From the NCBI GenBank assembly GCA_036677365.1, contig JAVBWN010000014.1:32001-96000 (forward strand): a stretch of DNA of 64,000 nt, read 5' to 3'. This DNA comes from Acholeplasma sp. (GTDB lineage: Bacteria; Bacillota_I; Bacilli_A; Acholeplasmatales; UBA5453). The first letter of the stretch is position 1, and every line of letters begins with the position of its first letter. The notes below the pieces were generated by a model, which was not told the DNA's origin, made no database searches, and saw only the letters and a program-made list of their open reading frames with translations. The position numbers and the translations under genes were made by a program. Shown here one piece after another: positions 1 to 17,932 of the stretch.

Positions 1-762
1 GAGTTGAAGTGCTCTATCAAACTCTACCAGTGTACTTGAACCATGGCAAACATAATATGAACCGCCTTCTTTTAGGACTTCTCTCATGTTCCTAAAAACT
101 TTTACTAAGAATGCTAAGAAATCATCCGATGGCATATTATCATTTTTAATTCTTCTATTATCGAATTGTTCATTACCATCTCCTTTAGCCCCAACATCAA
201 CATTGTAAGGAGGATCTGTTAGTACCAAATCAATTTGCTTTCCATCAACAAGACGTTTGATATCTTCTTCCTTCGCTGAGTCTCCACAGGTTAATCGATG
301 ATTACCTAAAATATAGATATCTCCAATTTGTGAGTAAGGTGTCTCCGGTATATGTTCATTTGGGTCAAAATCATCTTCAAAAACCTCATTAGGTTCAACA
401 TCGGATTCAAATCCAAAAAGTGACATATCTAGTCCATCGATGTTTTCTAATTCTAGTTTCAATTTTTCTAAATCCCATGATGCAATTTCTCCAACTTTAT
501 TGTCGGCCAAACGAAATGCTTTAACCTGTTGTGGTGTTAAGTCATTGGCAACAATACAAGGAACTTCTTCCAGTCCTAATGAGATTGCTGCTTTAAACCT
601 AGTATGCCCAGCGATAATAATATTGTTTCCATCGACAATGATAGGAACTTTGAATCCAAACTCTTTGATGGAGTTTGCTACTGCATCAACAGCTGCAGTA
701 TTATCCCTGGGATTATTCTCGTATTCCTTTAAATCACTTATCTTCTTGTTTATTAGTTGCAT
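1..762 (-). CDS. ParB-like N-terminal domain fused to N6/N4 DNA methyltransferase, phage type (runs off the window edge)
   Basis: Not in the ORF track; my translation from ATG 762 (GGAG RBS upstream): MQLINKKISDLKEYENNPRDN...EFGFKVPIIVD...IIAGHTR...AFRLADNKVGE...HRLTCGDS...DLVLTDPPYNV. Confidence 0.88.
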   Translation of the reverse strand, partial: MQLINKKISDLKEYENNPRDNTAAVDAVANSIKEFGFKVPIIVDGNNIIIAGHTRFKAAISLGLEEVPCIVANDLTPQQVKAFRLADNKVGEIASWDLEKLKLELENIDGLDMSLFGFESDVEPNEVFEDDFDPNEHIPETPYSQIGDIYILGNHRLTCGDSAKEEDIKRLVDGKQIDLVLTDPPYNVDVGAKGDGNEQFDNRRIKNDNMPSDDFLAFLVKVFRNMREVLKEGGSYYVCHGSSTLVEFDRALQL

Positions 763-1243
763 TGATATCTCCTATTTCCATTGGTTTCCAATCATTTTCT
801 TTTTGTCGTTCTAGAACCTTTTGTTCTGACAGCTCTAGTTCATACTTCTTTTCACTATATTCCTTACCAAAATTGATGATCAGTAAATATCGTGCAACTC
901 CCATATCACCAAGAATCGTTCTTGTTTGTTTAATCACTTTCTTTTTTGTCCCAGTTGGTGTTTGTTCAATGATTTGGTCTTCATTCACAATAGTGAATCC
1001 CATCGCACGTTCAAACATCTTCTCAAGAAGTGATTTTTTTAACATGTTTCTTCCGTCTTCGTAAGATTTCTCAACATCCTTATATTTCTTTCTAAGAGAA
1101 TACAATGTGTTTTCTGAAACTCCTAATTCAGTTGCAATGACACCCATACCACATGATCTACTCGCTAGTTCTTTGATGAGTTTTAGTTTTGATTGTAAGA
1201 CACCATCATTTTTCCATGTTTGATAATTATCCTTTCTCATCAT
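734..1243 (-). CDS. Phage HTH protein, terminase small subunit-like
   Basis: N-terminal HTH (IATELGVSENTLYSLRKKY) followed by ERAMGF...KKVIKQTR...GD, a pattern typical of putative small terminases; precedes the ParB-methylase. Confidence 0.6.
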   Translation of the reverse strand: MMRKDNYQTWKNDGVLQSKLKLIKELASRSCGMGVIATELGVSENTLYSLRKKYKDVEKSYEDGRNMLKKSLLEKMFERAMGFTIVNEDQIIEQTPTGTKKKVIKQTRTILGDMGVARYLLIINFGKEYSEKKYELELSEQKVLERQKENDWKPMEIGDINATNKQEDK

Positions 1244-1472
1244 CAGTCCTCACTTCTTCATCTGATTCTTGAGGAACTACGACTATTTCTCGCACTGCTT
1301 GTGCAGTAGGTGTATAACCAGCTCACGTGCATTTTACCGCATCAATGATAATCTGCTAGGTTGGCTCAGAGCATAAAAAAACCAATCATCTCTGATCAGT
1401 TTTGTGCTTACTATTTGAATTGTCACTAATTATATGACTTACAAATGTGCAAGATTCTATATAACTACTATT

Positions 1473-1961
1473 TTATCTAAGTTTGTCGTAAGCTTCTGTT
1501 TTCATCCATTTGGAGTACTCATATGCTTCTAAAACGGCAATTGTCGTAAATAGCAATAGCGATAAAATGATAAAAAAAGTATATGTTTGCCTAAGTGAAC
1601 TTGTAGAATCTGCTAATCTCAAGTATGTTTGAGTCGCATCTTTAACTTCTAAAAGTGTTCTTGTTCCAACATAAGAGATAGATAACTCTTGGCCGTTTTC
1701 AACATTTTCTAAAAAATCATCATAATCAAATGCATGCTGGTAATGGGTCTCAATCTCATACGTTTTGCCATCAGAATCCTTCAGAAGGTAGTATGATGAA
1801 TCATCATTAATAAACCTAATGGAGTCAAATATGATCGAAATAGACTTTGAATTATTCAGTTGATGAATGCCATTTAGTGAACCAATGAGCATACCAATCG
1901 GTAATAACAAAATAGCGATATAGATTACGATTCGTATTGCGATAGCTTTGTTCCTTGTCAT
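1473..1961 (-). CDS. Hypothetical membrane protein with two terminal transmembrane helices
   Basis: Hydrophobic N- and C-terminal segments around a soluble domain; GGTGAGG RBS. Confidence 0.7.
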   Translation of the reverse strand: MTRNKAIAIRIVIYIAILLLPIGMLIGSLNGIHQLNNSKSISIIFDSIRFINDDSSYYLLKDSDGKTYEIETHYQHAFDYDDFLENVENGQELSISYVGTRTLLEVKDATQTYLRLADSTSSLRQTYTFFIILSLLLFTTIAVLEAYEYSKWMKTEAYDKLR

Positions 1962-2076
1962 ATTTAAACCTCACCTTAAACACTTTAATAAGTCCAATTT
2001 GTTATGGTTTTTGCTTTTTTGTGAATTACTTGATTTTACCACTAAATGGCTATTCAGTAACCACAGTGTTATATGT

Positions 2077-2115
2077 TTTTCCTATTTGAGACTTCATAAA
2101 CTGGTGTTATTGAAT
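2077..2115. repeat. Cassette-boundary repeat core, copy A (accessory TTACTTGATT motif at 2026)
   Basis: ttttcctatttgagacttcataaactggtgttattgaat; 32/39 identical to copy D at 12598. Confidence 0.9.
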
Positions 2116-2186
2116 GGATGATAAAACCAAAATAGTTATATTAGATAACTTGTACGTTGACTTAATTATCTGTATGATCTCAATCA

Positions 2187-2528
2187 TTATTCATTCTTAG
2201 ATTTTAACGTTTTTAGTTCAAGTTCAACATCTCTTAAGTATTCGTCACGATGGTAGTCTCTTAAACTATTAAACTTTTTATTAATCTCACTAAATTTATG
2301 AGTTGTGTCACGATCAAAAACTTTATGATAACTTTTATCTAGGATAAGTTCTAAAAATCTACTGTCATAACTTGGTTTGCCATCATTCTCATTGAAACGA
2401 CCTTTGATATAACCTATTGGTTGTATAAATGCTTCTTCCGGACTGAATGAGTTACATTCATAATCAAACTTGTTATTAATCCTTCTTTCTAGTGTTTTTA
2501 CCATCTGCTTTGTAATAATATATTTCAT
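2187..2528 (-). CDS. Hypothetical protein (113 aa)
   Basis: ORF with strong AGGAGGA RBS; no family recognised. Confidence 0.7.
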   Translation of the reverse strand: MKYIITKQMVKTLERRINNKFDYECNSFSPEEAFIQPIGYIKGRFNENDGKPSYDSRFLELILDKSYHKVFDRDTTHKFSEINKKFNSLRDYHRDEYLRDVELELKTLKSKNE

Positions 2529-2677
2529 CTTAATTCCTCCTTATTTGATTTTTTTTAATACCCTTTGAGATTCTATTTAATGTTAAGGTATGCTTGGATT
2601 TTAATTGAGGAAATACCATGTTGACAAAGAAGTTCTCTAATTGCTCCATTCCAACCCTTAAAGTGGAAAATCAATAC

Positions 2678-3868
2678 CTAAAAAGTATATCTATGATGAA
2701 TGGGAAGGTTCTTTATGTATTTAAAATATATGTTTTTCAATATTTTACTTGCCTCAATATTGCTCTTGCTTAGTAATCTAGTAAAATCAGTAATTGTTTT
2801 TTTTGCAATGGGAACATCTTGGTAAATCGGGCGATAATAATCTCCACCTTCATATTCTCCTGTTGATTCCCTTCTACCATTAATCACTACGTCGGCGGTC
2901 ACAAAAAAACATTCAGCAAATTCTTTATAATTAGTAATTACATCATAATAGTCTGTATTATGAATTAAACTTTTCAGTTTTCGAATTACTGATTTTGGGT
3001 TAAAATCGAATACTCCAGATTTATTATAAAAACCTAATATTGTGTAAGAAAGTTCACTCGCCATTTCTCTAAAGATAGTTTTATTTTCATCTGTAATAGT
3101 AGTTTCAAAAACGTTATAAACATCTTCCAAAATGTCGTTAAAATTTTGATACCTCGAATCTACCTTATACTCACACATTTTAGAAACAATAGTGTCTAGA
3201 AATTCTGTATGTTCATCAAGGTGTAATTTGCTAATTATGTTTTGAAATATGTGTCCCAAATAGTAAATATCTGTTCTCATACTATAGTTGTTTTCCTTAT
3301 TAATCACTTCCTCTGGTTCAGATGCTGGCCAATTTAAAATAAGTGAACTGTTAGTTCCGCCAAAATCAATGTTAGTTTTACTATAACCAAAGTCAATTAA
3401 CTTAACTTGCCCATTTTCACTTACGAGAATATTCTTGTTCCTTAAATCTCTATGAATTATTCTATTTTTTTCTAAATGTTTAAAGCCTTCAATACACTGC
3501 ACAAAAATGCTCATTACCTGAGATGGATTAGTATTTAAATAACTGAAAATATCGTTTCCATCTATGTGTTCCATTAATATAAATCCAGTGGTATCACTTG
3601 TATCCGAAAATACAAAATGAGAAAAAATCCTAACAACATTCTCATGATAAGATGTGTACATTGATTTCAACTCTTCATTGAATCTCCCCTTTGATTCATC
3701 ATCATTAATCGGAACTGCTTTGCAAACAAAATTCATTTTTAAAGTATAATCATATAAAAGAGCAACCTCTCCCTGACCGCCACTTCCGATATAACCTATA
3801 AAAGTAAATCTATTTTTCCATTTTGAATTGACTAAAGACTCAATTGTCATAGAATATATCATCTCCAT
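2678..3868 (-). CDS. Hanks-type Ser/Thr protein kinase with unrecognised C-terminal domain
   Basis: GSGGQGEV P-loop, VCK lysine, IIHRDLRNKNIL catalytic loop, KLIDFG, DIYYLG. Confidence 0.9.
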   Translation of the reverse strand: MEMIYSMTIESLVNSKWKNRFTFIGYIGSGGQGEVALLYDYTLKMNFVCKAVPINDDESKGRFNEELKSMYTSYHENVVRIFSHFVFSDTSDTTGFILMEHIDGNDIFSYLNTNPSQVMSIFVQCIEGFKHLEKNRIIHRDLRNKNILVSENGQVKLIDFGYSKTNIDFGGTNSSLILNWPASEPEEVINKENNYSMRTDIYYLGHIFQNIISKLHLDEHTEFLDTIVSKMCEYKVDSRYQNFNDILEDVYNVFETTITDENKTIFREMASELSYTILGFYNKSGVFDFNPKSVIRKLKSLIHNTDYYDVITNYKEFAECFFVTADVVINGRRESTGEYEGGDYYRPIYQDVPIAKKTITDFTRLLSKSNIEASKILKNIYFKYIKNLPIHHRYTF

Positions 3869-3885
3869 TTTCTTTAAATAATAAA

Positions 3886-3976
3886 TTACTCGATTTATGC
3901 GCTATTTGAATGTCTTGTATCTAAAAATCAATATCTCAATCTTCCATTCTTGACGAGGAAACTTGTTTCATCGATT
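3886..3976. repeat. Degenerate cassette-boundary repeat, copy F
   Basis: Exact TTACTCGATT motif at 3886 followed about 55 bp later by a weak core match tcttccattcttgacgaggaaacttgtttcatcgatt. Confidence 0.45.
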
Positions 3977-4055
3977 CAATTGATATCAAATCGTCATTTT
4001 TTACTATTTAACTTAATCTCTGTAAAATTACCAAATCTATTTCAAAATCATCACA

Positions 4056-6086
4056 TTAGAGAGGTCTTAAATCCTTATCTATTACACCTAGTTCTATGAA
4101 TACCTCATCAAGTTTTTTCAACGTTTCAAATGTAAAATCCGTTGATTTAATCGCCTTACCAACCAGGTTTTCATTAACCTTCTTATTCCTAATATATTTT
4201 ACTCTATCCTCACCATGCAATAATCCTTCTAATGATTTTTCTTCAGAATCACCACCGACCAATACCTTTTGCTTAGAATCGATTTCATTCAAAATACTAA
4301 ATTTTGTCTTCGTGTCTGCATCTAAAATAATTTTGAACATTGTTTTTGAATCTTTAAGAAATTTATATAAAATTTTTGCGTTACCAGCACCTTCTAGACT
4401 GTAAATGAAGTATTTTGATAAATCAACTTTCCTTATTTTCATGTATGTTTCAAATAGAGTCTTATCACTTTTTCCTTCTACGAGTAGGTAAGTAATATTC
4501 TTATTTAGAATTAATTCTTTATAGCTATTTATTCCTATCTCGTTGATTACAGATATCGAATCGCTTATTGTTATTTGCTTAACAACTGATCCACTATCAT
4601 CAATATCAACAAAATAATAATTTTCTAGATTGTTAGGAATCATATCAATACTATTGGTGCAATAGATTACTTTATTTGTTTTTGAAAGTTCAATTAAGTC
4701 CATCAAAATTTGTTTTTGTGCATCAGGATGTAAAAATGACGCTGGTTCATCAATGATTATAATGTCATCTTTATCCATAGAATTCTTGAGAAAAATGTAT
4801 GACAGATACCATCTTCTACCTAAGCTAGTTGACTCCAATGGGATGTCAACACCATTTTTTTCTTTAATTTTATAAACAAAAGATCTGTTGTCTTCAGATA
4901 TAATTGCTGTTAATGAAAGAATTCTGTCTTTATCAAAAAGTGGAACGATTGTTGCAAGATATTTATCAATTTGATTCTTCAATTGCTTCTTTCGGCTATC
5001 AGTAATATTACTCAAATCTTTAATATCTTCGTTTTGTTGTAAAATGCCATTTTTCTTTAAATAGTTCGATACACACTTATAGATTACATTATTGCCATCA
5101 GTTCTTCTATTATAATAATCATTCGTTGTTTGAAACAACAAAGTACTTTCATTATCTAAATATAGTGCATCATAATCAATACTAGATTTTATTAAATTTA
5201 AAAAAGTGTTGTATTTTTTATCTTTCTTATCATTCTCATCATAATAATTGTTTAATCGATTATTAAACAAACGATGGATTTTTTGAACAATCCTATTAAA
5301 CTCATCAAGTGCTTTAGTAGCATTATCATAGTAATCCTTTAATTCACTATTTATTCTATCAATAGTCTTATCATACTCATCATAATTTATATCTGTAAAA
5401 GTCGCTAAAAGCGGATCAATATAAAGTGATTCTTTGCTTAAAAACCTAAGGTTGGGTACATTTATATATGGCAGTGATTGTACTTCATCATAATCAATAT
5501 TGATCTTACCCTTCTTAAAGTTATCTGACATAAACCTCTCAAGCGTATTAACAATTGTTTCCATTTTTGTTTTCGAGTCATCACTGCTACGTTCAAATCC
5601 ATAGAAATTTGTAGCGCTAACAATGTCTATACGACTGCTAGTTTTATTTTTCTTTGAAAGTTCTTCTATGGTAATTTCACTTAATTTCTTATAATAACAT
5701 TCAAAGTTTTCTACTATTTTATTTTTAAGACCTCTTAACTGATTTTCCCATTTTGAGATAGATAACTCATGTATTTTGGCTTTTACTCTAGTGGCTCTGA
5801 AATCACGATAACTTGATTCCACCTCGACAATTCTCATATCTTTATCAAACTCAACTTCATCTGAGAAGTTCTTGATTTCATCATCATTCAATTCATAAAT
5901 CAATTTGTAATTTGCTCTTTCATTGTGATGTTGATCAACTGAAAAAAACTGTTTAATCGCTCGTAGAATATTAGTTTTCCCACTACCATTCTTTCCAACG
6001 AAACAAAGAAGATTTTGCGAAAAATCTATCTCAATCGGTTTTCTAATGGATTTGTATTGACTGATTATCATCTTCTTTAATTTCAT
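4056..6086 (-). CDS. OLD-family ATP-dependent nuclease (ABC-type ATPase plus TOPRIM)
   Basis: Walker A GKNGSGKT, coiled-coil insert, signature-like SLGRRW, Walker B IIIDEPASFLHP, TOPRIM LLVEGKSD...LDAD. Confidence 0.85.
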   Translation of the reverse strand: MKLKKMIISQYKSIRKPIEIDFSQNLLCFVGKNGSGKTNILRAIKQFFSVDQHHNERANYKLIYELNDDEIKNFSDEVEFDKDMRIVEVESSYRDFRATRVKAKIHELSISKWENQLRGLKNKIVENFECYYKKLSEITIEELSKKNKTSSRIDIVSATNFYGFERSSDDSKTKMETIVNTLERFMSDNFKKGKINIDYDEVQSLPYINVPNLRFLSKESLYIDPLLATFTDINYDEYDKTIDRINSELKDYYDNATKALDEFNRIVQKIHRLFNNRLNNYYDENDKKDKKYNTFLNLIKSSIDYDALYLDNESTLLFQTTNDYYNRRTDGNNVIYKCVSNYLKKNGILQQNEDIKDLSNITDSRKKQLKNQIDKYLATIVPLFDKDRILSLTAIISEDNRSFVYKIKEKNGVDIPLESTSLGRRWYLSYIFLKNSMDKDDIIIIDEPASFLHPDAQKQILMDLIELSKTNKVIYCTNSIDMIPNNLENYYFVDIDDSGSVVKQITISDSISVINEIGINSYKELILNKNITYLLVEGKSDKTLFETYMKIRKVDLSKYFIYSLEGAGNAKILYKFLKDSKTMFKIILDADTKTKFSILNEIDSKQKVLVGGDSEEKSLEGLLHGEDRVKYIRNKKVNENLVGKAIKSTDFTFETLKKLDEVFIELGVIDKDLRPL

Positions 6087-6222
6087 ATTACACCTTCTTG
6101 ATTGTTTCTTACTTGCAACTAGATGCTGATTTTCTTTTTATAATATATGTGTAAGTATAGTGCATTCTTAAATACACGGATTCATCACTAAAAGTTTATC
6201 GTACAGCCATTAAGATATATCT

Positions 6223-6261
6223 TTTTCTCATTTGAGACATCATAAACAGTGATTATTGCAT
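6223..6261. repeat. Cassette-boundary repeat core, copy E
   Basis: ttttctcatttgagacatcataaacagtgattattgcat; separated by 3 bp from the stop codon of 6265..7020. Confidence 0.9.
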
Positions 6262-6264
6262 TCA

Positions 6265-7020
6265 TTATTTCTTAGAAATTATCAGGAATCTATGTTCGGT
6301 TGATTCAATATAACCAACTTCTTTAATTCTTTTATCTAAATCAATAAACTTATCAAAATGTCTTTCTACTGAAAAATCAATAAATTCCCAACTGATGATT
6401 TTAGCAAAATAAGCGATAGCTCCCAAATCAAAGAATTTTATTTTAGGGTAATACTCTTGTTGATCAATGACTTTAAATCCTTTATTTATTAAGCGTTGAA
6501 CTGATTTTTCAAGTGTCATTTCTGGAAATTGATCCGTATGGTTGTCATCAAAAAAAGTAGCAAGATCTTTGTTATTAAATGCACCAATTTGCTGCGTAAT
6601 AAAGATACCACCTTTTTTTAAAACACGATATACCTCATTTTCATCATATGATTCATGTCTATTAACGACCATATCAAAATGATTTGATGGAATGTTAGTC
6701 AATTGATTATTTTCTGTAATTGGGTAAACTTTAATCCCTTTAGGTGCTAGTATTTCTTGACATAGTTTAATATTAGGTTCATAAGCTTCTGTCACAGATG
6801 TTAATTGGTGTGGATGATTGAGTGTTAATAAGAACTCGCCACCACCTGTTCCCATATCAAGTAATGTATCTGTTGGGTTTAAATATTTTAAAAGGATTTT
6901 CTTGTAATCCCAAGGTAGTATTTCGTTTTCCCATCTATTATTCAAATAAGAAAAATCCCATCCCTTAAATGTATGTTCTTCTTCTTTAATTAAATACTTT
7001 TTTAGTTCGTTGTTGTACAT
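6265..7020 (-). CDS. Class I SAM-dependent methyltransferase
   Basis: FKGWDFSYL...LPWDY N-terminus, LLDMGTGGGE motif I, FDMVVNRH, VLKKGGIFITQQ. Confidence 0.88.
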   Translation of the reverse strand: MYNNELKKYLIKEEEHTFKGWDFSYLNNRWENEILPWDYKKILLKYLNPTDTLLDMGTGGGEFLLTLNHPHQLTSVTEAYEPNIKLCQEILAPKGIKVYPITENNQLTNIPSNHFDMVVNRHESYDENEVYRVLKKGGIFITQQIGAFNNKDLATFFDDNHTDQFPEMTLEKSVQRLINKGFKVIDQQEYYPKIKFFDLGAIAYFAKIISWEFIDFSVERHFDKFIDLDKRIKEVGYIESTEHRFLIISKK

Positions 7021-7038
7021 ATGTTTGCTTCCTTATCA

Positions 7039-7130
7039 ATTTGCTCATATTTACTCGATTCTACCTATCTATTACCTATACAAGTATATCATTTTCCACT
7101 TTAAGACCTCATAAACCACTATTATTGAAT
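7039..7130. repeat. Cassette-boundary repeat, copy B (full ~90 bp unit, core 7092-7130)
   Basis: Core ttttccactttaagacctcataaaccactattattgaat lies 3 bp from the stop of 7134..8288; 7039-7076 matches 8289-8326 at 31/38. Confidence 0.9.
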
Positions 7131-7133
7131 TGA

Positions 7134-8288
7134 TTATCTGTAGGTATATTTGAGATATAAATCACCTAATTTTGCTTTTTTAATCATTACTCTTTTTGGT
7201 AATTCTGGTCTTGATAATGCTAATGTACCAATTATAATCTGACGATAGTTTTCGTAAATATCAACAAACGCATCCAGAATTTCATAAACCTTAGGGATAT
7301 TTACAGTTATTTCTGATTGTATAGTATTGTCTTTAAACACGATGGTTGGTGAATATGTAGTTATATGGAAATTCTCTTTATTTCTCTTGATTGAAAAGAT
7401 TTTTAATTCATCTTTATAGCAATTCGAAATTGCATCTAACTTATCCGAAAATTGTTTCTTTTTTAACCTAACATTAACAAGTGCTGTAATCTTGATAATA
7501 TATGAAAATGCTGATGAATGTCTCTCATCTGATTTAGTCATAAATAATTCACGGATTCTTGATATAAGCATTGTCAATATTTCATCTTGCATTATAATAA
7601 TATCAGCAGCTTCAATATGTGACTTTTCAGATGTTTTTTGTCTAAATTGATATTTTTTATTATTTTTAGAATATCTCAACAACTCTCTAGATAGTCTTAT
7701 TGTTGCACCTACATACCAATCTATAGAATTAAAGTGTTCTAAAAAAAACTCTAGTAACCTTTCTTTTTTGTAAAATGTAACCAATGGTTTCACATCATCG
7801 GCGATGGTATTTAGGTTTTCATTTCTATTTCTTAATCTCTTGTTTAATTCAGAAGTAAAAACAATTACATGTGAATAATGACTGCTTATATCTATCTCTG
7901 AATATTGCCACATCCCATTAATAATAAACTCAGATAAATCTACAGATAATAAAAGTAAGTAGACTTCATTTTCTCTTATAATAGTCGATTTTCGAAGAAT
8001 CTCTAGTACTTCTGAACGTTCTAAATTGTGCCATTCAATCCTAAGAACTTCAGAAATTCTTTCTTTAACCTGAGAATAATTATCAGAAAAGTCAAACAAG
8101 AAATATCCATCATTAATCATATGATTTATTGAATTGAAAAATGCTAACTCATCAAGTGAAGAACATAATTCCGTAATTTTGCCAAATAAGAGTGAACGGA
8201 AATTTGGATCCATATTTATTCTTGGATTTATCAATTTTTCTAATCCTTGTCCATTTATAGTTCTATTCATCCTAATCACCTTTTCCAT
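7134..8288 (-). CDS. Hypothetical protein (384 aa), no family recognised
   Basis: Long ORF bounded by repeat copies B and C. Confidence 0.75.
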   Translation of the reverse strand: MEKVIRMNRTINGQGLEKLINPRINMDPNFRSLLFGKITELCSSLDELAFFNSINHMINDGYFLFDFSDNYSQVKERISEVLRIEWHNLERSEVLEILRKSTIIRENEVYLLLLSVDLSEFIINGMWQYSEIDISSHYSHVIVFTSELNKRLRNRNENLNTIADDVKPLVTFYKKERLLEFFLEHFNSIDWYVGATIRLSRELLRYSKNNKKYQFRQKTSEKSHIEAADIIIMQDEILTMLISRIRELFMTKSDERHSSAFSYIIKITALVNVRLKKKQFSDKLDAISNCYKDELKIFSIKRNKENFHITTYSPTIVFKDNTIQSEITVNIPKVYEILDAFVDIYENYRQIIIGTLALSRPELPKRVMIKKAKLGDLYLKYTYR

Positions 8289-8377
8289 ATTTGCTCACTT
8301 TAACTTGATTTAAACTATCTATTACCCTTGTTGGACTACCATTGCTTACTCATGAGTTCATAAACCATTAATCAAGG
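8289..8377. repeat. Cassette-boundary repeat, copy C (conserved left part, degenerate core retaining TCATAAAC)
   Basis: atttgctcactttaacttgatttaaactatctattacc matches copy B; TCATAAACCA at 8358 sits at nearly the same spacing as in B; abuts the stop of 8378..8782. Confidence 0.75.
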
Positions 8378-8782
8378 TTAATCAATAGATTCAAGAGTAA
8401 ACCACTCATTACCCGTTTTGAACTTGAATACAACTTCTTTTTCATCTTGGTATCTGCTTGTCAAATATGGTCCGTACTTAGCATTTATAAAGTCTACAAA
8501 CGAAAAAATATCGAAGCAATCAACTGGTTCTCTACTTATTAAGAAATATTTGTATCCTTTATCTCTTCTTTTATTAACAAAATATATAACATCTTCTTTT
8601 GAAGAACATGCACTCACGAACTTGTTTCTTAATATTTTTGGAAACACTTTATTTTTGACTGCTCTGAAGATATATGTCTTTTTCCTAAATTCGGGAAAAT
8701 CATGATACAATGATTCAAGCATTTTTCTATGCTGGTCGGTCGGATAGTTAGAACCAAGATATTCATTTAGATTTCTCGTCAA
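8378..8782 (-). CDS. Putative ADP-ribosyltransferase, R-S-E clade; true start may be ATA at 8836
   Basis: Motifs in the expected order: YIFRA, FVSACSS, YQDEKEVVF. Frame is open upstream to an AGAGGA RBS at 8843-8848. Confidence 0.6.
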   Translation of the reverse strand: MTRNLNEYLGSNYPTDQHRKMLESLYHDFPEFRKKTYIFRAVKNKVFPKILRNKFVSACSSKEDVIYFVNKRRDKGYKYFLISREPVDCFDIFSFVDFINAKYGPYLTSRYQDEKEVVFKFKTGNEWFTLESID

Positions 8783-8914
8783 AACCAGTAGTCCAAGACC
8801 AACAAAGTAAGCATCATAATCAAAAGTATTGTCTATAATAATTCCTCTTTTCTATTCAGAATACTGTATATAACCTTATTACCTAGATATTAGATTTTTC
8901 ATTTTCTGTTGTGT

Positions 8915-8948
8915 AAAAAAAGGGGTCATTATTAACTCTAATACCCCT
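8915..8948 (-). terminator. Intrinsic terminator of the R-M operon
   Basis: Minus strand aggggt...acccct stem followed by a T-run, just after the stop at 8956. Confidence 0.6.
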
Positions 8949-8955
8949 AATTCAT

Positions 8956-9564
8956 TCATAATATTGATAAATAATACCACTTATCATCTAATAATTTGTC
9001 TCTAACATCCTTTGAAAGAGCAACAGATCTATCCGCGTTTGTTCTTTCATCATCTTGCTTAACAGTAATTAAATCAACAGTTTGAATATCCGAGATGAAA
9101 TCTGAGAGTAGCTCGATTTTTGCTTTTTGTGTCAAACTTACAAGACTTAATTCCTTCACCTTATTATTTATTAAACTTAATATATGTTTGTTGGAGGGAT
9201 TATGATCAAAGTGAAAAAATTTTCCAGAAAGCTCTCGCTGTATTGACCCTTTCGAGTTGCTAGAAAACATTGCCCAGTTTCTATCAAGTGTTTTTTTCAA
9301 TATACCTACCCTATCTTCTTCAATGGTAAAGGGTATATTTTTATTCCCTAATTCGATCAACGCTGAACCGCTAATCCTGCTTCGTACAAATCTAGTACTT
9401 AATTTCATCCACGAACCACATAAAGTCGAGTTACCACCTCCACCTTTAAGTAGCTCCATCAAAAATAAATCATCATATTTAGCATTAAATATCTGAAAAT
9501 AAAAAACAGCAGTATTTCTAATCCATACATCCCTAGACATATTACTTGAAATAGTTTTCCCCAT
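8956..9564 (-). CDS. Hypothetical protein coupled to the R-M operon, possible His-Me-finger-like nuclease
   Basis: Start overlaps the upstream stop; FHFDHNP...DLITVKQDD resembles EHxxP...ITxxED HNH variants (weak). Confidence 0.55.
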   Translation of the reverse strand: MGKTISSNMSRDVWIRNTAVFYFQIFNAKYDDLFLMELLKGGGGNSTLCGSWMKLSTRFVRSRISGSALIELGNKNIPFTIEEDRVGILKKTLDRNWAMFSSNSKGSIQRELSGKFFHFDHNPSNKHILSLINNKVKELSLVSLTQKAKIELLSDFISDIQTVDLITVKQDDERTNADRSVALSKDVRDKLLDDKWYYLSIL

Positions 9565-10727
9565 TAATTTAACTCCTTATGTATACTTGATAATCTTGAC
9601 TTATTTAAAACAGTGTATACATGCATGGATATAGTCGGTTTCTTTTGACGAACTTTAGAAAACTCAAATGTAACATAACCTGCACTAATCTTAACATCGT
9701 TAATTTTAAGAAAGTATAAACTGTTAATGTCATACCGAGTAATTTTCGTCATTCCTCTTCCCTTTTTCTCATTGCTAGCATTATAAAGCATGGAAACCAT
9801 AACCCCATCAAATTTAGCACCTTGTGCATTTAAAACTAGTTTCAAATTATCAGGAGTGAAAACTGGATAATTATTTCTTCCAGCCATCCTAATTTCTGAA
9901 CCGGAAATATCAATGTTATCAAGCAAATGGGTAGAAGGTAAAGCGAAGATTTTACTGGAGTCTTGTAACAAATATAAATCTAGTTTCTTGGTTCTATATG
10001 TCGCAGATACCAATTCATCGGCAGTATCTTTATCAATTTCATTTCCGATTTTATAATTTGATCCGGCCATTTTATAAACATCTGTTACAGTATTGAATTT
10101 TTCTATGTACTTTAAAAATCCTGGTAACTCAGTCTTGATTTTTTCTGAAGGGATGAGCTTTCCATCTTCTTTGTAATCTAAATCATACTCTCCCATTTTG
10201 GCTTTTGAATCTTTAATCTCTAATCTAATTCTATAACCTTCATTAACGAATATTGCATCAATAGAGGATGAATCTCCATATTGAAGCAAAACTACACCAG
10301 ATTTTGAACCATGGTAAATATATCGTGGGAACTGACCTTCAAGTTCTCCACCTTTTGCTTTAATCAATGAAGTCAAAAGATGTGTAGGCACATTATCACG
10401 ATTATCGTCAGCATCAATAAAATATTCTAATTCTAACAGGTTTGCAACTGTCTGTATAACAAAGCATTCATTTAATATAGCAGGTTGTAATGCTTGCTGC
10501 TTTGAAAATTGCTTAGCAAACTCTGCTTGTGCAGCATTTGATACCTCCAGTGTTTTTTTTAATGATGATAATTCATTGATAAATGAATCGTAATCTGAAT
10601 ACAGTTGGAAATTTTCCTTATAAAAAACGTCTAATTTTCTAATGTTTGATTTAGAAGCCACTAACTTAGTTAACTTCCCATCATTATATATTTTGTTGAA
10701 TAGTAGAACTAACGCTTTATTCGTCAT
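9564..10727 (-). CDS. Putative type II restriction endonuclease, PD-(D/E)XK fold
   Basis: Overlaps the methylase stop; E...SIDAIF...RLEIKD catalytic-like motif. Confidence 0.6.
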   Translation of the reverse strand: MTNKALVLLFNKIYNDGKLTKLVASKSNIRKLDVFYKENFQLYSDYDSFINELSSLKKTLEVSNAAQAEFAKQFSKQQALQPAILNECFVIQTVANLLELEYFIDADDNRDNVPTHLLTSLIKAKGGELEGQFPRYIYHGSKSGVVLLQYGDSSSIDAIFVNEGYRIRLEIKDSKAKMGEYDLDYKEDGKLIPSEKIKTELPGFLKYIEKFNTVTDVYKMAGSNYKIGNEIDKDTADELVSATYRTKKLDLYLLQDSSKIFALPSTHLLDNIDISGSEIRMAGRNNYPVFTPDNLKLVLNAQGAKFDGVMVSMLYNASNEKKGRGMTKITRYDINSLYFLKINDVKISAGYVTFEFSKVRQKKPTISMHVYTVLNKSRLSSIHKELN

Positions 10728-12276
10728 GGCTCACCTCATAGTTTTTATGAAGTAGTTCCATGTCTTTCGCATACTTAGGAAACAATACCTCATTTATTTT
10801 GAGTCGATATTCTTCAGGGAACTTAATACTCTCTTGTTGTTCTCCTGCGTTTAATTTGTATGAAACATAGTCAGATTCCTTATCAATCATTGAAGCAATT
10901 GTATCTTCAATTTCTATTATTTTTTCAAACAATTCCTCATGATATGGTATAGAATAAAGTATTCGTTTCGAAAAGAGAATACCGCCATCTGAGAAACGCC
11001 ACCACATGTATGCGTAACTTGAGTTTAACAAAGAATATAACAAATCAAACGAAGCTTCATTCTTAGCATATATTATGAAGTATCCTTTTCTGTTTAAGGA
11101 TTTTTTACTAGCAAGTGTAAAATATCTTGCCGAAGTAGAGACGTACAACTTATAATCATTACTTTGAAGTAATGGCTCAAATTGAATAAGATCAGACAAG
11201 TATTTCACATCACCATGACTAATCTCATTTACCATTGGTTCAAGTTCTCTAAATGCTTTAATTGGTCGATCTAGCATTTGGACATTGGATCCTAATTTAC
11301 TTCTTAAAAACTCCAAATTTATAACTTCAAATCTTTGATCAGTTCTAAATCTAATAAGGTGTGTCAATTTAAACCCATTATGACCATTTCTCTTTAAGGA
11401 TGTAATTGAAGCTCTAACACCATTTGCTGAGTTTGTGTTAAATATACCATGCTTTTTTCCACTAAATAACGTTCCTGGAACATTATCAAATGAAAATATC
11501 TCACCATAGAAATTATCTGATAGTTTTGATCTAAGTTTTGAGAATTTAGCAGCAACAAGATACGACTGGGGAGATACTATAACTGCATTTTCACAATAAT
11601 TGATAATCTTGTTCATAAATGCCGCATACAAGTCCTTTGCTTGAAGTAATACATCGTCCACATTCCATGACTTATTAAATTGCTTAATCAATGCATATGG
11701 TGGATTAGTTATCACAGATACTCCTGCTGGAAGTGACACTCTTTTATCTAGGAAATCTGCATGTACAACATTTATTTTATGTGAGACTTCAACTTCGAGT
11801 AAAATATCTATCTTTTTCAAACATATATTTAACGCAATACCATCAGCGTCATATAGATATAATTTACCATCCATAATAAAATCAATCGGATCGATTCCTT
11901 TTGTATCTTTAAGCATACTTAGAACCTGTATGATTAGGTTTCCTGTACCACAACCAACATCTGCTATTGTTAGGATTTTGTTTTCTAATAATAACCTAGA
12001 CATGACAAGACTAACATCTTTTGGTGTATAGTATTTCCCCATATCCTTTTTCGAAATTTTATTTGTGTGTGCTAGTCCAATTTCATACAGTTCTCCGAGG
12101 TTATCAAAATCTAAGAGGACATTTTTGGACAACTCTACGATTCGTTTATCAGTTAGAAAACTTAGTATAACTTCCCAAGTTTTTGTCAATCCAATTTCAT
12201 CTATCATTTTCAAATAGTGGTCGATAGTAAAGGTGTTGATATTTATTTTTTGATTTGGTTTGACTGTTTTGCTCAT
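10717..12276 (-). CDS. N6-adenine DNA methyltransferase, gamma class
   Basis: GKYYTP, DVGCGTGNL motif I, ITNPPY motif IV, LLNSSY in the C-terminal TRD region. Confidence 0.9.
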   Translation of the reverse strand: MSKTVKPNQKININTFTIDHYLKMIDEIGLTKTWEVILSFLTDKRIVELSKNVLLDFDNLGELYEIGLAHTNKISKKDMGKYYTPKDVSLVMSRLLLENKILTIADVGCGTGNLIIQVLSMLKDTKGIDPIDFIMDGKLYLYDADGIALNICLKKIDILLEVEVSHKINVVHADFLDKRVSLPAGVSVITNPPYALIKQFNKSWNVDDVLLQAKDLYAAFMNKIINYCENAVIVSPQSYLVAAKFSKLRSKLSDNFYGEIFSFDNVPGTLFSGKKHGIFNTNSANGVRASITSLKRNGHNGFKLTHLIRFRTDQRFEVINLEFLRSKLGSNVQMLDRPIKAFRELEPMVNEISHGDVKYLSDLIQFEPLLQSNDYKLYVSTSARYFTLASKKSLNRKGYFIIYAKNEASFDLLYSLLNSSYAYMWWRFSDGGILFSKRILYSIPYHEELFEKIIEIEDTIASMIDKESDYVSYKLNAGEQQESIKFPEEYRLKINEVLFPKYAKDMELLHKNYEVSHDE

Positions 12277-12542
12277 ATTAAACCCACCTTCCCTTTATAA
12301 TCTTTACATTTAATTCATTATCATTTAGCCAACTTTTATTACAACAATATAAGTAGAATATATATAATTATATATATGCTGTCATCAATTAGATTTTATC
12401 ACAGAACCGTAGAATTTGCTATTTTTGTGTTCGAGTGTAATCGCTTAAACTATCAATGCACTATTCGAAACATAATCATGAGAATTCCGAATTCTAAAAT
12501 CTGTAAATGAACATACTCAATAATTACATTAATTTTTATATT

Positions 12543-12636
12543 CTACTCGATTTTTCCACTATTTACCACTCTTTCAACTAGTTGAAAAGGGTATCGATTT
12601 TCCTATTTAAGACATCATAAACATGCATTATTGATT
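12543..12636. repeat. Cassette-boundary repeat, copy D (core 12598-12636)
   Basis: ctactcgatttttccacta, then a 16 bp palindrome tttcaactagttgaaa, then core ttttcctatttaagacatcataaacatgcattattgatt. Confidence 0.9.
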
Positions 12637-12741
12637 AGATAAATTGTATCACAAAAGCCCTTGTAATTCTACCTTTAATTAAAATTAAAGCACCTTAAAG
12701 TTTATGATCACTCATCTTCATCAGAGACATCAATATTCAAC

Positions 12742-13242
12742 TTATTCAATATTCGGATACATTTCATAGTAACTATCAACGAAATCTTCAATATTTTTGA
12801 ATTCGTTAATAAACTTTTCATAGAGTTCTAAGGCGAATCCTTCTGCTTGTTGTTCTAATAGGTGTGTACCCCATTTATCACTTGAATCATCGTAGTTTTC
12901 GGCTTTAAATTCATGAATCATTTGAGTCATTTCATCCTCTGTGAATAGGTTATTTTTAACTCCCATACCATATCCAATCACAGCTGAGTATTGAACTGAA
13001 TGAAATGTTTCATGGAATGCACATTTGATGATTCTATCAGTCTGTGCAGTTCTAAGCCATTCACGATTGTACCGAATAACAAACATTTCCTTTTCGAAAA
13101 GACCTGAGTGATTGATTGACTTAAACATATCTCCATCGTTAATGAACACCCATAGTGCATCATCTACTTTCAAAAATTTTCTGGCAAAGTTGGTTGCTGC
13201 TATAACGAGTTTTTCATTTAAACTCCCATCACAATTATTCAT
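12742..13242 (-). CDS. HExxH zinc metallopeptidase-like protein (ImmA/IrrE-like)
   Basis: AFHETFHSVQ plus downstream EQQAEGFA; own TATAAT and GGAGG RBS. Confidence 0.65.
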   Translation of the reverse strand: MNNCDGSLNEKLVIAATNFARKFLKVDDALWVFINDGDMFKSINHSGLFEKEMFVIRYNREWLRTAQTDRIIKCAFHETFHSVQYSAVIGYGMGVKNNLFTEDEMTQMIHEFKAENYDDSSDKWGTHLLEQQAEGFALELYEKFINEFKNIEDFVDSYYEMYPNIE

Positions 13243-13401
13243 GTAATCACTCCTCCAATTACAGATGATTATACTACATGTTTTACTGAATTCAATTAAA
13301 ACTCATACGTTTTTATTCTCCAAAAATAATGTTTATAAAAGTCACTCTTAAAATCGGTTTTATCATAGATAAGTCATCACATTTGATAAAATATTTACTA
13401 C

Positions 13402-14487
13402 TCATCTGACAGAACACTTCTTATCAAATGTTTGTCTTAACTGCATCATTTCTTCGTTGTAACGTGCCAGGTAGTGTTCTTTACAATAGAGTTGTTGTTT
13501 CACTTCATCAATCGGAAACATCGCAATCGATTCTTTCTTTAGTTTTGCCTGGATTGTCTCATTTAATTTTAAGAGTTCTTTGAGCTCAGATGAGTTACTC
13601 CATTCAATACTTCGTTGATTCTTCTTGATTGCATTTGTTAAATACCCTAGTTTGTTATTGATCTTTGATTTATCTGTTTGGGATAGTTTTCTAAACTGGA
13701 ATAGAAAGTACTGAACGTGTTTCTTCAGTTCATCAAACTCATACGTTGTTTTTAAATAATTATCAAAGAAAGCATTCGTAGCTAATAGATTATCCATATC
13801 TCCTTCTTCAAGGTATTTAGAGTATACCAAGTATTTTGTTAATATATGAGACTTTGAAAACTCTTCATGCCACTGATTGGTTTTCAAATTTTCTAAAAAA
13901 TCATTGATTATTGATTCACTTGAAAAAGTGACTTTATCATATTTATCATATTTATCATTTCTATCATTTTGATCGATTGATTTGATATCTATTTTATTAT
14001 CTCTATACTCTATACTCTTATCTCTTAACTCTGGGGGGAAATTTCCGTGGACAATAGCGTGGACTTTTTCCACGCTATTGTCCATCAATTGTTTTTCCTT
14101 TTGCTTTCGTTTTACTTCTGCCCAACCGGTTTCTGAACCGACTAGTTTATCAAATCCTGTTATGCAAATAATGTTTGATTCATCTTCGTAAAGCAAACCT
14201 AGTTTCATCAACATATCTATCGCAACTCGAATGGTATCAATCTTAAAGAACATGAGTTCCTGGGTAATAGTTGTTAAATCATATATTAGTTCCATCTCAT
14301 TTACTTTTTGGATGAGTCTTCCATTGGAGTTGATTGATAACATGATAAGGTAAACATATATGCTAAAATACCAACCACCATCTGGTTGGCGCATTAGCAG
14401 CTTCATTTCCTTAGATTGCATCAGGTCCTGGCGGAGTTTGATCCAATAATATATTTCATTTCTTTTATCATTTCTCATAGATACCAC
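13402..14487 (-). CDS. Phage replication initiator with replisome organiser N-terminal domain
   Basis: YYWIKLRQDLMQSKEMKLLMRQPDG...YL...LVGSET; central low-complexity repeat linker. Confidence 0.85.
   Translation of the reverse strand: MVSMRNDKRNEIYYWIKLRQDLMQSKEMKLLMRQPDGGWYFSIYVYLIMLSINSNGRLIQKVNEMELIYDLTTITQELMFFKIDTIRVAIDMLMKLGLLYEDESNIICITGFDKLVGSETGWAEVKRKQKEKQLMDNSVEKVHAIVHGNFPPELRDKSIEYRDNKIDIKSIDQNDRNDKYDKYDKVTFSSESIINDFLENLKTNQWHEEFSKSHILTKYLVYSKYLEEGDMDNLLATNAFFDNYLKTTYEFDELKKHVQYFLFQFRKLSQTDKSKINNKLGYLTNAIKKNQRSIEWSNSSELKELLKLNETIQAKLKKESIAMFPIDEVKQQLYCKEHYLARYNEEMMQLRQTFDKKCSVR
14048..14084. repeat. Perfect 16 bp inverted repeat inside the rep gene, candidate phage origin
   Basis: tggacaatagcgtgga-ctttt-tccacgctattgtcca, next to tttatcat tandem repeats at about 13933-13968. 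Confidence 0.75.
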
Positions 14488-14513
14488 CTTGAACCAAATT
14501 GATTAATACACGA

Positions 14514-15668
14514 TTAAACACCATGTTTGAATAATTCCTTAAATATTTCACAAAGCACATCGATGACGATACCATTACCAGCAAATGTGTACAGTCTAGC
14601 ATCTGAGAACTTATCTATAATTAAGTCGATTCTATCATCTGTCCAACCCATCAATCTTAATGATTCTCTTGGTGTGATACGTCGTATCATTAAGGCTTTA
14701 TCTCTTTCGACAATAACTCCTAAATCACTGACTGTCCTTTTTATAGTTTGAATCTTTCCTTTTTGGACACACCCACGCTTTTGATGTGGACGGTTAATAT
14801 AGATGCCATCACCTAAATAAGCCTCCTTATAGCCCTTTAGCGTTGCTTCTGGAACGATAACGTAATTGTCTGTTGGTGTTGATCCTTTTCTTGTTGTAAT
14901 GGTAAATGCGTATCTACTCTTAGCGGTGTCATGTGGTTTAAACCTATTGCCTCTAATGAAACCATTTCTATCTGTTGGATCCGTGCAATATAGCAAGAAT
15001 GCTTCGCTTATGAAATACTTCTCATCTACTACTGGCTCAAGATAATCGATAAGATTTTTCTCAAGTGGAAATGCATTTGGAAATTCAAACTCAAAACTTG
15101 GATTCAATATAGAAACCAGGAATACTCGGTTTCTTGTTTGTGGTATACCATAATCTTTAGCATTTAGCTGTTTCCAGTAATTCTTATATCCTAATGCTTC
15201 TAAAAACCCTAACCACTCATTAAAACTATGAATGAATTTCTTAGATACAAGCATAGGTACATTTTCCATAAATAGATACTTTGGCAATTCATTTAATTCT
15301 TTTGACTTCATCAGTAATCTTTCAACTTCCCAAAGCAGCGATGATGCTGTATTTGAATTTCGATCCATTCCTTTCATTGAGCCTGCTAACGATATATCCG
15401 TACATGGAGCTGAATAGCACCATAAATCTGCTTGCGGAAGTCTTTCAACATTCGCAATATCCCCATAGTTTGGTATATTACCATGAAGGATTTTATGTGC
15501 TTCAATAGCATACTTATTTATTTCTGAAATACCCATCAGTTCGTGTTCAACGTTGTTTCTTCTCAAAGCTTCTGCATATCCACCAATGCCAGAAAAAAGT
15601 TCAACAACAGTCAAGTTTTGGATTCGCTTAAAAACAGGTGAATAATCACCATTTTTTATTGTATTCAT
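14514..15668 (-). CDS. dcm: DNA (cytosine-5)-methyltransferase, orphan phage type
   Basis: ELFSGIGG, SAPC, ENV, PQTRNRVF and terminal AGNGI motifs. Confidence 0.92.
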   Translation of the reverse strand: MNTIKNGDYSPVFKRIQNLTVVELFSGIGGYAEALRRNNVEHELMGISEINKYAIEAHKILHGNIPNYGDIANVERLPQADLWCYSAPCTDISLAGSMKGMDRNSNTASSLLWEVERLLMKSKELNELPKYLFMENVPMLVSKKFIHSFNEWLGFLEALGYKNYWKQLNAKDYGIPQTRNRVFLVSILNPSFEFEFPNAFPLEKNLIDYLEPVVDEKYFISEAFLLYCTDPTDRNGFIRGNRFKPHDTAKSRYAFTITTRKGSTPTDNYVIVPEATLKGYKEAYLGDGIYINRPHQKRGCVQKGKIQTIKRTVSDLGVIVERDKALMIRRITPRESLRLMGWTDDRIDLIIDKFSDARLYTFAGNGIVIDVLCEIFKELFKHGV

Positions 15669-15682
15669 AGATGTAATTTCCC

Positions 15683-15886
15683 CTATTTATTTTTTAATGT
15701 ATCGATTGGTTTTTCTTTGACTTTAATCTCTTTTAATGTTAAAAACTTTTCTAGAGATTCTTCAGTTACCCTTAACTGATTCCCAAGTCTAATTGCTTTT
15801 AATTCTCCAGTGGCGATATACTTATTAATGGTTTTACGTGAGACGGACAACATCTCACATACTTCAAATACGCTATATATTTTCAT
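15683..15886 (-). CDS. Excisionase-family HTH protein
   Basis: YSVFEVCEMLSVSRKTINKYIATGELKAIRLGNQLRV. Confidence 0.85.
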   Translation of the reverse strand: MKIYSVFEVCEMLSVSRKTINKYIATGELKAIRLGNQLRVTEESLEKFLTLKEIKVKEKPIDTLKNK

Positions 15887-17560: not shown

Positions 17561-17852
17561 CCATCACCCATCTACTTTCTCTTCTTATACCTAAATTTCT
17601 TCGCTCTTTTTGATATTCGAGTTCTCCTTTACAGAGGGTTTCAAAGTCTGTATTTAGGATGTTTGCTAAATCATTTAAGAACACAACATCCATCCGATGA
17701 CCTTTAATACCTTGTTCGATTTGGTAGTAATATGGTTTTGACAACAACATATTATTTGTAACCTCATAAATCGATAATTTTGCATTTTTTCGTAACTCAT
17801 ACAAATACATCCTTAAGTGGGGTCTTTGTTTTGCTTTATTGGTTTCATTCAC
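17547..17852 (-). CDS. Cro-like XRE HTH regulator
   Basis: YLYELRKNAKLSIYEV...YYYQIEQG; GTG at 17852 after an AGGAGG RBS; divergent from the repressor. Confidence 0.75.
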   Translation of the reverse strand: MNETNKAKQRPHLRMYLYELRKNAKLSIYEVTNNMLLSKPYYYQIEQGIKGHRMDVVFLNDLANILNTDFETLCKGELEYQKERRNLGIRRESRWVMDDEL

Positions 17853-17932
17853 AACACATCTCCTCCTGGTTGTGATAATTCTAACAAGCAAATAAAGAAT
17901 TCCTTGATGTAGGAAAAACAAGGATTTTAAAC

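Follow-up and report, generated by a model that had tools for sequence, protein, structure and literature searches.

The left part of the 64-kb window of Acholeplasma sp. DNA analysed here (contig JAVBWN010000014.1) holds a prophage in which unrelated, mostly defence-type genes are separated by a recurring intergenic repeat. As far as comparison with related loci goes, these elements are the place where cargo is exchanged. Our favoured explanation, in which we place about half of our confidence, is that the repeat is a portable cis-regulatory module of ~60–110 nt, of the promoter or leader type. It would stand before cargo genes or operons in a variable hotspot of Acholeplasmataceae prophages and islands derived from them, and would double as a recombination hotspot.

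Anatomy and distribution of the element

A 39-nt consensus, searched on both strands of the window with up to three mismatches allowed, gave four matches, all of them without mismatch (plus-strand positions 2077, 6223, 7092 and 12598; elements D, C, B and A below), and no match was found in 100 dinucleotide-preserving shuffles. An independent repeat search returned the same four copies as the largest direct-repeat family of positions 1–18000 (43 nt, 77–81% identity to the reference copy), which bears out the four 39-bp cores listed at these positions in an initial annotation of this DNA. The copies share 27 invariant positions and are otherwise 59–76% identical. Such invariance within otherwise divergent copies may be a sign of selection and, if so, would speak for a regulatory module.

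Read in the orientation of the genes, the element runs TTCAATAAT-N4-GTTTATGA-N-GTCT-YAAAT-RRG-AAAA, after which come ~70 nt with purine-rich boxes and then the ribosome site and start codon. We built a position profile from 24 non-redundant copies, numbered from the G of GTTTATGA as position 0 (G0). Its upstream half consists of an A/T-rich block, AATTAAT, at −23 to −17, TTCAATAAT at −13 to −5 and four variable bases; the centre of GTTTATGA at 0 to 7, one variable base and GTCT at 9 to 12; and the downstream half of YAAAT, RRG and AAAA up to +24, T-NN-TATAC-YT up to +34 and T-RRGTA at 38 to 43. The outer bases of a pseudo-dyad, TCA...TGA, surround the variable centre. The imperfect dyad of the initial annotation is thus present but weak, its arms (TTCAATAAT against the reverse complement of GTTTATGAN) agreeing at five of eight comparable positions, and the 7-bp spacer assigned to it gives way to a variable centre of 4–5 nt.

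Downstream of the core, boxes of the form DRG-[ATG]-A-W-W (in a simpler consensus RRG-W-AAAT) lie at +18 (21 of the 24 copies), +39 (8 copies), +60 (14) and +70 (10). Their spacings of 21, 21 and 10 nt are multiples of ~10.5 nt. The last box is the motif TACTYGATT, already noticed to the left of CATAAAC and found there at a distance of 58–72 nt in copies D, B and A. It occurs at 2027, 3887, 7052, 12544 and 49077, five times in the window against 1.88 expected, and one of 100 shuffles also reached five. In A-type copies, box 1 is out of phase with the others (spacings of 36, 10–11 and 12–13 nt).

By automatic gene calling, a start codon lies 77–110 nt past G0 in 10 of 22 copies. The count becomes 12 of 22 with a missed open reading frame (ORF) of 209 amino acids (aa) at +103 in the related locus M7 and in its 96% identical copy in Paracholeplasma vituli. 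Copies B, C and E begin directly after the upstream stop codon and extend to the next start codon, and a conserved TAA at −20 to −18 is the upstream stop codon in 5 of 27 copies. A conserved mini-ORF starting from the ATG inside GTTTATGA was rejected, its length being 3 codons in T-type and 14–23 codons in C-type copies, with no ribosome site. This ORF, which in T-type copies reads ATG-NNN-TCT-TAA at +4 to +15, is probably meaningless unless transcripts start just upstream.

All copies in the window lie on the minus strand. Element A (12546..12653; core 12598–12636, G0 12622) combines the predicted extended −10 promoter TGTGATACAAT (12643–12653) with the core, an inserted hairpin and boxes. 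It lies directly 3′ of the backbone gene p166, its cargo starts past ~+72, and homology to P. vituli stops at 12551. Element B (7021..7130; G0 7116) fills the entire gap from the stop codon of p384 (at −20 to −18) to the start codon of a 251-aa methyltransferase gene, 96 nt past G0. Its profile E-value is 1.5e-20; since the profile was built from 24 of the copies, those copies' own scores are circular. Element C (6160..6261; G0 6247) lies between the stop codon of the methyltransferase gene (at −20 to −18) and the start of an OLD-family gene, 161 nt past G0, and is 91% identical over 55 nt to the P. vituli copy pv_12699. Element D (2013..2115; G0 2101) stands upstream of p162, which encodes a protein with two transmembrane segments, and P. 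vituli homology resumes at 2126.

Three further copies had been claimed. The degenerate one at 8289–8377 is marginal: as element E (8279..8377) it keeps GTTTATGA and reaches E=0.02 with the full-length profile, and over 38 nt its 3′ boxes match the 3′ part of B at 82% identity. The claimed partial copy F (3886..3976, minus strand) reduces to the TACTCGATT box (AAATCGAGTA; 3887–3895 on the plus strand), and at ~8862–8907 nothing is detectable; neither profile finds either site at E≤10.

We then turned to other genomes, scanning one genome per species with the single exact 18-base pattern CAATAA-N5-GTTTATGA-N-GTCT. This gave 22 loci, 14 of which carry the rest of the consensus. Ten of the 14 are labelled as Acholeplasmataceae (P. 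vituli, Acholeplasma oculi and several metagenome-assembled genomes, MAGs); the other four comprise two of one 'Bacillota' MAG, one of a 'Bacilli' MAG and one of a 'Staphylococcaceae' MAG. The remaining eight, in unrelated taxa, were rejected as chance matches, as only the searched bases agree (profile E=0.005–0.5). A profile search of the DNA of related loci, where genes were called as simple ORF picks, brought the total to 29–30 copies in the window and 11 contigs. Elements are multi-copy per contig, and in every locus all copies lie on one strand. Neighbouring genes point the same way as the element in 27 of 28 cases on its upstream side and in 22 of 25 on its downstream side; all exceptions (three downstream, one upstream) are insertion sequence (IS) transposase genes.

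The profile found no copy in the window's 42 kb of host DNA, nor in the packaging and structural part of the P. vituli or A. oculi prophage. The expectation that matches would be confined to such arrays is therefore supported, the motif-complete matches all lying in prophage or defence-island contexts, and the occurrence upstream of housekeeping genes that was named as a refutation was not seen. Nucleotide searches of a phage collection gave no near match to window 1–22400, and a query with 6087–7175 only chance-level matches of 28–34 nt; in a plasmid collection, only the ParB-methylase gene was matched. Literature on Acholeplasma prophages, defence and intergenic regions and on Paracholeplasma mentions no such element in its titles and abstract openings.

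Some features of the related loci may be recorded here. IS elements (rve, IS21 IstA/IstB and DDE transposases) stand directly behind elements in two MAGs (L012 10221–10886; L015 3725–5996 and 6766–8601). Several MAG contigs end in, or less than ~100 nt from, an element (L006 4–61; L021 9289–9350; L001 108–186; L016, M8 18244–18310), as expected if assemblies break at repeats or at junctions with population-variable cargo. In M7 (L007 15206–16600), only pieces of the terminase and ParB-methylase genes match the window, indicating a decaying prophage, and its three elements are intact.

Exchange of cargo at the elements

With the P. vituli prophage, the window shares 93% identity over 15404–12551 and 98% over 2126–1. 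Between A and D, the window has 10.4 kb and P. vituli 14.1 kb of other genes, and the sole shared piece is the 55 nt at copy C. The repeats had been described as marking junctions of unrelated, mostly defence genes in a prophage, and the comparison upholds this, relatives holding different cargo between the same repeats. The 251-aa methyltransferase gene with its B-type element is found both in the window and in A. oculi, with different neighbours; this block is homologous from ~28 nt before one element to ~41 nt past the next. After redundant comparisons were collapsed, 10 of the 14 distinct homology-block ends in the hotspots lay within 80 nt of an element.

The cargo between elements in the relatives is overwhelmingly of the defence type. 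It includes type I, II and III restriction-modification, GmrSD, Abi_2, a reverse transcriptase, AAA_15/AAA_21 ATPases, a kinase, SMEK, DUF4365 and Schlafen-like proteins, with OLD genes also among the neighbours. An ArsR-type regulator and a P-type metal ATPase lie behind an element of A. oculi, between the p162 homologue and the terminase gene (L020 5574–8307), and thus the hotspot also carries non-defence cargo.

Each element type keeps company with particular genes on its downstream side: the B-type precedes the 251-aa methyltransferase gene (window and A. oculi), the pv_12699/M7_10012 type the 209/280-aa genes, and the D-type p162. Where two genomes share the upstream gene, the element that follows it differs beyond +13. 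Same-type copies across genomes are 90–100% identical over 55–115 nt, and copies inside one genome have exact runs of only 7–17 nt in common, a combination that favours exchange between phages over self-deletion. Homology of pairs sharing the downstream gene starts at −13/−14 (three cases) or −28, and that of pairs sharing the upstream gene ends at +13, +45, +52 or +57 to +77. As −13 to +12 is nearly invariant, a crossover anywhere inside it would give the observed edges. The initial annotation had looked for cargo changes exactly at the core; they do fall at the elements in the 10 of 14 cases given above, but the breaks scatter from −28 to +77. Recombination between copies, of a homologous or short-homology kind and not site-specific, would swap, insert or delete cargo, a step suggested by the recurrence of the same block at many junctions in many phages.

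The initial annotation had instead proposed an integron- or pdif-like site-specific capture system. The core would then be the crossover site of a tyrosine or other conservative recombinase, and the boxes accessory arms, as in cer/psi or res. Much of the arrangement agrees with this: the elements lie at cargo junctions and at most block ends, the three downstream-shared pairs have the same left edge, the methyltransferase gene is flanked by elements in two genomes among different neighbours, the pseudo-dyad with its TCA...TGA outer bases encloses a variable centre, phased boxes lie on one side, and the window's prophage contains a tyrosine recombinase gene (16616–17560, minus strand). The sites themselves argue otherwise, and we consider such cassettes very unlikely. 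Tyrosine recombinases need identical overlap regions and serine integrases identical central dinucleotides. The 5 nt before GTTTATGA, however, are distinct among all copies of each genome (none shared among 21 copies in six genomes), so that copies of one array could hardly recombine conservatively; serine-recombinase att sites were rejected for the same differing central bases. A boundary at a fixed nucleotide (G/TT) fails because of the scattered left (−28 to −13) and right breaks, and the layout of a 28-bp Xer site, two 11-bp arms in dyad symmetry with 6 bp between them, fails in its arms (5/8), its centre of 4–5 nt and its conservation, which is asymmetric to +43 and beyond.

A route through folded single strands, as for attC, finds no more support. 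RNAalifold predicted no pairs for the 24 copies, and both strands of the four window copies, folded as DNA, showed no excess stability over shuffles (z −1.1 to +2.0), copy B folding less stably than 197 of 200 shuffles. The remark that the sites do not look like classical attC hairpins is therefore confirmed. No attI/Pc platform was identified.

The recombinase is likewise a poor candidate. The product of 16616–17560 scores 75.6 bits on the integron-integrase model TIGR02249 (cut-off 265), with only its C-terminal part matched, and 134 bits against the XerD cut-off of 330; it is also far under the XerC cut-off. It is a generic tyrosine recombinase, not linked to the element elsewhere. The co-occurrence with its homologues that had been suggested as a check was not found: no homologue (E<1e-6) occurs in the DNA compared at any related locus; for M8, A. 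oculi and L005 this DNA extends 6–9 kb beyond the upstream end of the array, and the contigs of P. vituli and M7 stop too soon to be informative. In L005, a chromosomal island between ordinary host genes carries three elements, and no recombinase or phage gene was found among the 23 ORFs called in 20 kb (all run through Pfam, 10 with matches). L005 thus lacks a recombinase or phage gene, and M8 and A. oculi this tyrosine recombinase in the DNA compared, leaving no dedicated partner gene. We give equally little credence to a 'promoter-first' gene-cassette system of Acholeplasmataceae phages, in which a cassette would comprise an element and the gene or genes behind it, the cut would be made in the TTCAATAAT block at −13/−14 by an unrecognised recombinase or a host enzyme, the boxes would be accessory, and defence genes would be loaded into prophages and islands.

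Promoter, operator or RNA signal

Several features together point to a cis-regulatory module for expression: the strict orientation, the fixed distance to the start codon, the linkage to the downstream gene, the lack of structure, the presence of −10-like hexamers, the extended −10 of A-type copies and the absence of a linked gene. A −10-like hexamer with A2 and T6 lies at −10 to −5 (AATAAT) in 16 of 24 copies and at +3 to +8 (TATGAT) in 13 of 24. The A-type copies also have a conserved extended −10, TGnTACAAT, which stops 7 nt short of the core on its left side. According to this explanation, the host machinery would start or re-start expression of each foreign gene at the element, which would act as a −10-only promoter, as a leader, or as both. 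A DNA-binding protein on the phased boxes would possibly modulate expression, and any gene placed behind an element would become expressible.

A number of observations weigh against this explanation. No −35 is conserved, at most 5 of 24 copies reaching four of six positions at the right distance from either −10 candidate, and a generic promoter scan of the region found 102 promoters, not above the 107 expected from shuffles. The most conserved G and C positions (G0, G6, G9, C11, G20 and C32) are not explained by a sigma-70 −10 box. A terminator-like hairpin lies within 110 nt upstream of only 1 of 29 copies; most copies would therefore be inside an apparent polycistronic unit and could do without a promoter of their own. 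The boxes, spaced by 21, 21 and 10 nt, fit an array of DNA-bound protein, but a 21-nt tandem duplication would explain this spacing just as well. On the side of recombination, 4 of the 14 block ends fall off the elements (two in the terminator region of p162, and the 3′ ends of a 280-aa gene and of an HsdR gene), and the right end at A and the left end at D may just mark where the backbone ends. The coinciding left edges at −13/−14 in three independent pairs would fit a precise crossover inside the invariant TTCAATAAT block equally well.

The phased boxes raise the alternative of an operator or roadblock array, in which a phage or host DNA-binding protein bound to the core and boxes would silence or time the cargo, like stoperators, and recombination would be incidental. 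The core is bipartite, its half-sites about one helical turn apart with a non-conserved centre, the boxes at +18, +39, +60 and +70 keep to multiples of ~10.5 nt, co-orientation with transcription is strict, and it is the sequence that is conserved, not a structure. The prophage's own regulators speak against such an array. The palindrome TTTAC-N5-GTAAA has exact copies in the window only at 17933–17947 and 18050–18064, in the cI/cro gap, and this pair likely represents the repressor operators. With up to one mismatch allowed, it occurs in no element, and the hypothesis that the elements are repressor operators was rejected. Moreover, no regulator gene is common to all loci within 10 kb, and the A-type copies break the phasing. 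We regard an operator array as rather unlikely.

The scarcity of upstream terminators suggests that most copies are probably transcribed through, and the repeat could then be an intercistronic element at the RNA level, a linear motif in a polycistronic mRNA serving RNase cleavage, 5′-end stabilisation, or ribosome or antiterminator recruitment. The fixed distance to the start codon, the purine-rich and unstructured sense strand and the coincidence of the predicted A-type transcript start with the left edge of the core would suit such a role. So would an extra hairpin in A-type copies, flanked by one compensatory change between genomes (TACC/GGTA to CACC/GGTG). Against such a role, in addition to the RNAalifold result, individual minimum free energy folds have no shape in common, and the candidate helices UCUY/RRGA and TAC/GTA are conserved in sequence without covariation beyond column shuffles: pair 13–18 lies below the shuffled mean, and pairs 30–43 and 32–41 are marginal (P about 0.04–0.05). 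An Rfam E-value scan of 1–22500 returned only the tRNA at 22378–22448 and chance-level matches, none of them at an element. The 21-nt helical phasing is also unexpected for RNA, and we consider this alternative distinctly unlikely.

The portable expression module remains our preferred reading. Given the missing −35, the near absence of upstream terminators and the phased boxes, its core may serve as a promoter, as a control site to which a protein binds or as a linear signal in the RNA.

Prophage setting and related systems

The prophage belongs to a low-G+C island, the left 22 kb of the window, with 28–35% G+C compared to 36–45% elsewhere in the window. From 1 to 17921 every gene is on the minus strand, and the Pfam families that they carry are unrelated to one another, in agreement with what was first noted for the genes between the repeats. 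The placement of this block between replication and packaging modules also proved correct, its limits being the replisome organiser (13402–14487, minus; domain and PHROG search) and the small terminase subunit at the right backbone border (734–1243, minus; phrog_309, 5e-14). The lytic gene order on the minus strand is a helix-turn-helix protein, the Xer-like tyrosine recombinase, an antirepressor-like protein, an HTH_17 protein, a C5 methylase and the replisome organiser, followed downstream by p166, ~10 kb of unrelated genes, p162, the small terminase and the ParB-methylase.

On the plus strand, a domain search identified a cI-like repressor (18097–18759). Beyond it lie two tandem overlapping large serine recombinases (19060–22171, also plus), with CcrB/CcrA as the best NCBIfam matches, far under the cut-offs. 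They adjoin the tRNA found by the Rfam scan (22378–22448, minus) at the prophage end, and they probably constitute the integration module. The tyrosine recombinase, encoded in the early lytic operon ~4 kb from copy A, co-exists with these serine integrases in the prophage; it could serve dimer resolution or be a second integration system. A 17-pair inverted repeat at 14047–14085, inside the replisome-organiser gene, is a plausible candidate for a replication origin. A protein search with the replisome organiser found distant phages only (<40% identity).

The left border gene of the hotspot, p166 (12742–13242, minus), encodes an HExxH protein that is 55–93% identical in P. vituli, M7 and M8, with an HETFH motif invariant across the four genomes. 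Neither p166 nor p162 has a match in Pfam, PHROG, NCBIfam or PADLOC. For p166, there are no sequence relatives in the PDB, and its AlphaFold model (mean pLDDT 74.5) has no PDB fold match at E≤0.001; the best similarity is to small metallopeptidases and is weak and non-significant (E=0.55). The gene p162 (1473–1961, minus) forms a unit of 1375–1961 with its own terminator (1375–1402). It behaves as cargo, because backbone homology with M7 and A. oculi begins only past this terminator (window 1431 and 1403). A role of p162 as a late activator was rejected; the protein reads as a membrane protein with two predicted helices.

Two intrinsic terminators (8915–8947 and 1375–1402) divide the hotspot stretch into two transcription units. 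Cargo unit 1 (8956..12276, minus), closed by the first terminator, comprises a type II N6 DNA methyltransferase (10717–12276) and proteins of 387 and 202 aa. Cargo unit 2 (2187..8782, minus) comprises p134, p384, the S-adenosylmethionine-dependent methyltransferase of 251 aa (6265–7020), an OLD/AAA_15-TOPRIM nuclease (4056–6086), a kinase and p113. The kinase (2678–3868, minus) is a PD-T4-6-like Ser/Thr kinase according to the domain and defence-family search. Between element A and the methyltransferase start of unit 1, the ~270 nt of 12277–12545 (minus) contain no sense-strand ORF of at least 20 aa; this gap has no Rfam match, no counterpart in the related loci and no distant match in the phage collection.

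Mycobacteriophage stoperators carry the repressor operator sequence; stoperator and start-associated motifs measure 13–17 bp and are not known to be tied to cargo swapping. Like them, the elements are asymmetric repeated motifs in short intergenic gaps, oriented with transcription and near gene starts, but here the operator motif of the prophage differs from the elements and is absent from them. With integron cassettes they have in common that unrelated, co-oriented genes are separated by a recurring element and that the cargo differs between relatives. However, attC sites fold as single-strand hairpins and sit at the 3′ end of the cassette ORF, in cassettes that lack a promoter, whereas our elements contain no hairpin-forming imperfect inverted repeat and belong to the downstream gene (three pairs); an IntI is also missing (76 bits against the cut-off of 265), and the break points are not fixed. 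The pdif/dif modules are XerC/XerD sites of alternating orientation that flank resistance modules on Acinetobacter plasmids. Modules between sites and a core with CATAA...TTAT-like arms around a short variable centre recall them, but all our copies are direct, the dyad is poor, and the ~70 nt of one-sided conserved sequence have no pdif counterpart.

The closest described system appears to be that of the promoter-early stem-loops (PeSLs) of T4-type phages, with which our elements would share a common logic. PeSLs were described as 'mobile regulatory cassettes' (Arbiol et al. 2010, PMC2839356; Comeau et al. 2014, PMC4122927), conserved motifs of promoter and terminator through which modules are shuffled in hyperplastic regions and mini-circles arise. 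Both systems have short conserved intergenic motifs that are co-oriented with the genes and clustered in a variable region among non-essential genes. Both have indel or replacement ends at the motifs between close relatives, and both would exchange genes by recombination from motif to motif without a dedicated recombinase, as the genome comparison suggests for ours. A PeSL consists of a strong sigma-70 promoter and a terminator stem-loop and belongs to virulent T4-type phages, whereas our element is at best a −10-only promoter with a long box-bearing leader, is found in temperate phages and islands of wall-less Bacillota, and accompanies cargo that largely consists of recognisable defence systems. 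A terminator-plus-promoter architecture like that of PeSLs was rejected, as a terminator-like hairpin precedes only 1 of 29 copies and none of the 29 has one at +20 to +130.

The hotspot also resembles the P2/P4-type defence hotspots, in that diverse, rapidly exchanged defence systems occupy a fixed place in the conserved backbone, which here is the interval from p166 to the small terminase. It is the flanking genes that define the P2/P4-type hotspots, and to our knowledge no repeated element shared by internal junctions has been described for them.

Prophage defence hotspots are usually defined by flanking genes alone, and how new systems enter them and become expressed is mostly obscure. The present analysis describes a junction-marking sequence module common to a dozen or more contigs from Acholeplasmataceae and related Bacillota. 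If this module is both a plug-in expression leader and an exchange point, it would account for the turnover as well as the expression of cargo in a little-studied phage group. It would also provide a sequence handle for finding unknown defence genes adjoining the element, several cargo proteins here belonging to no family, and the PeSL principle, described for virulent T4-type phages, would then apply to temperate phages of wall-less bacteria as well.

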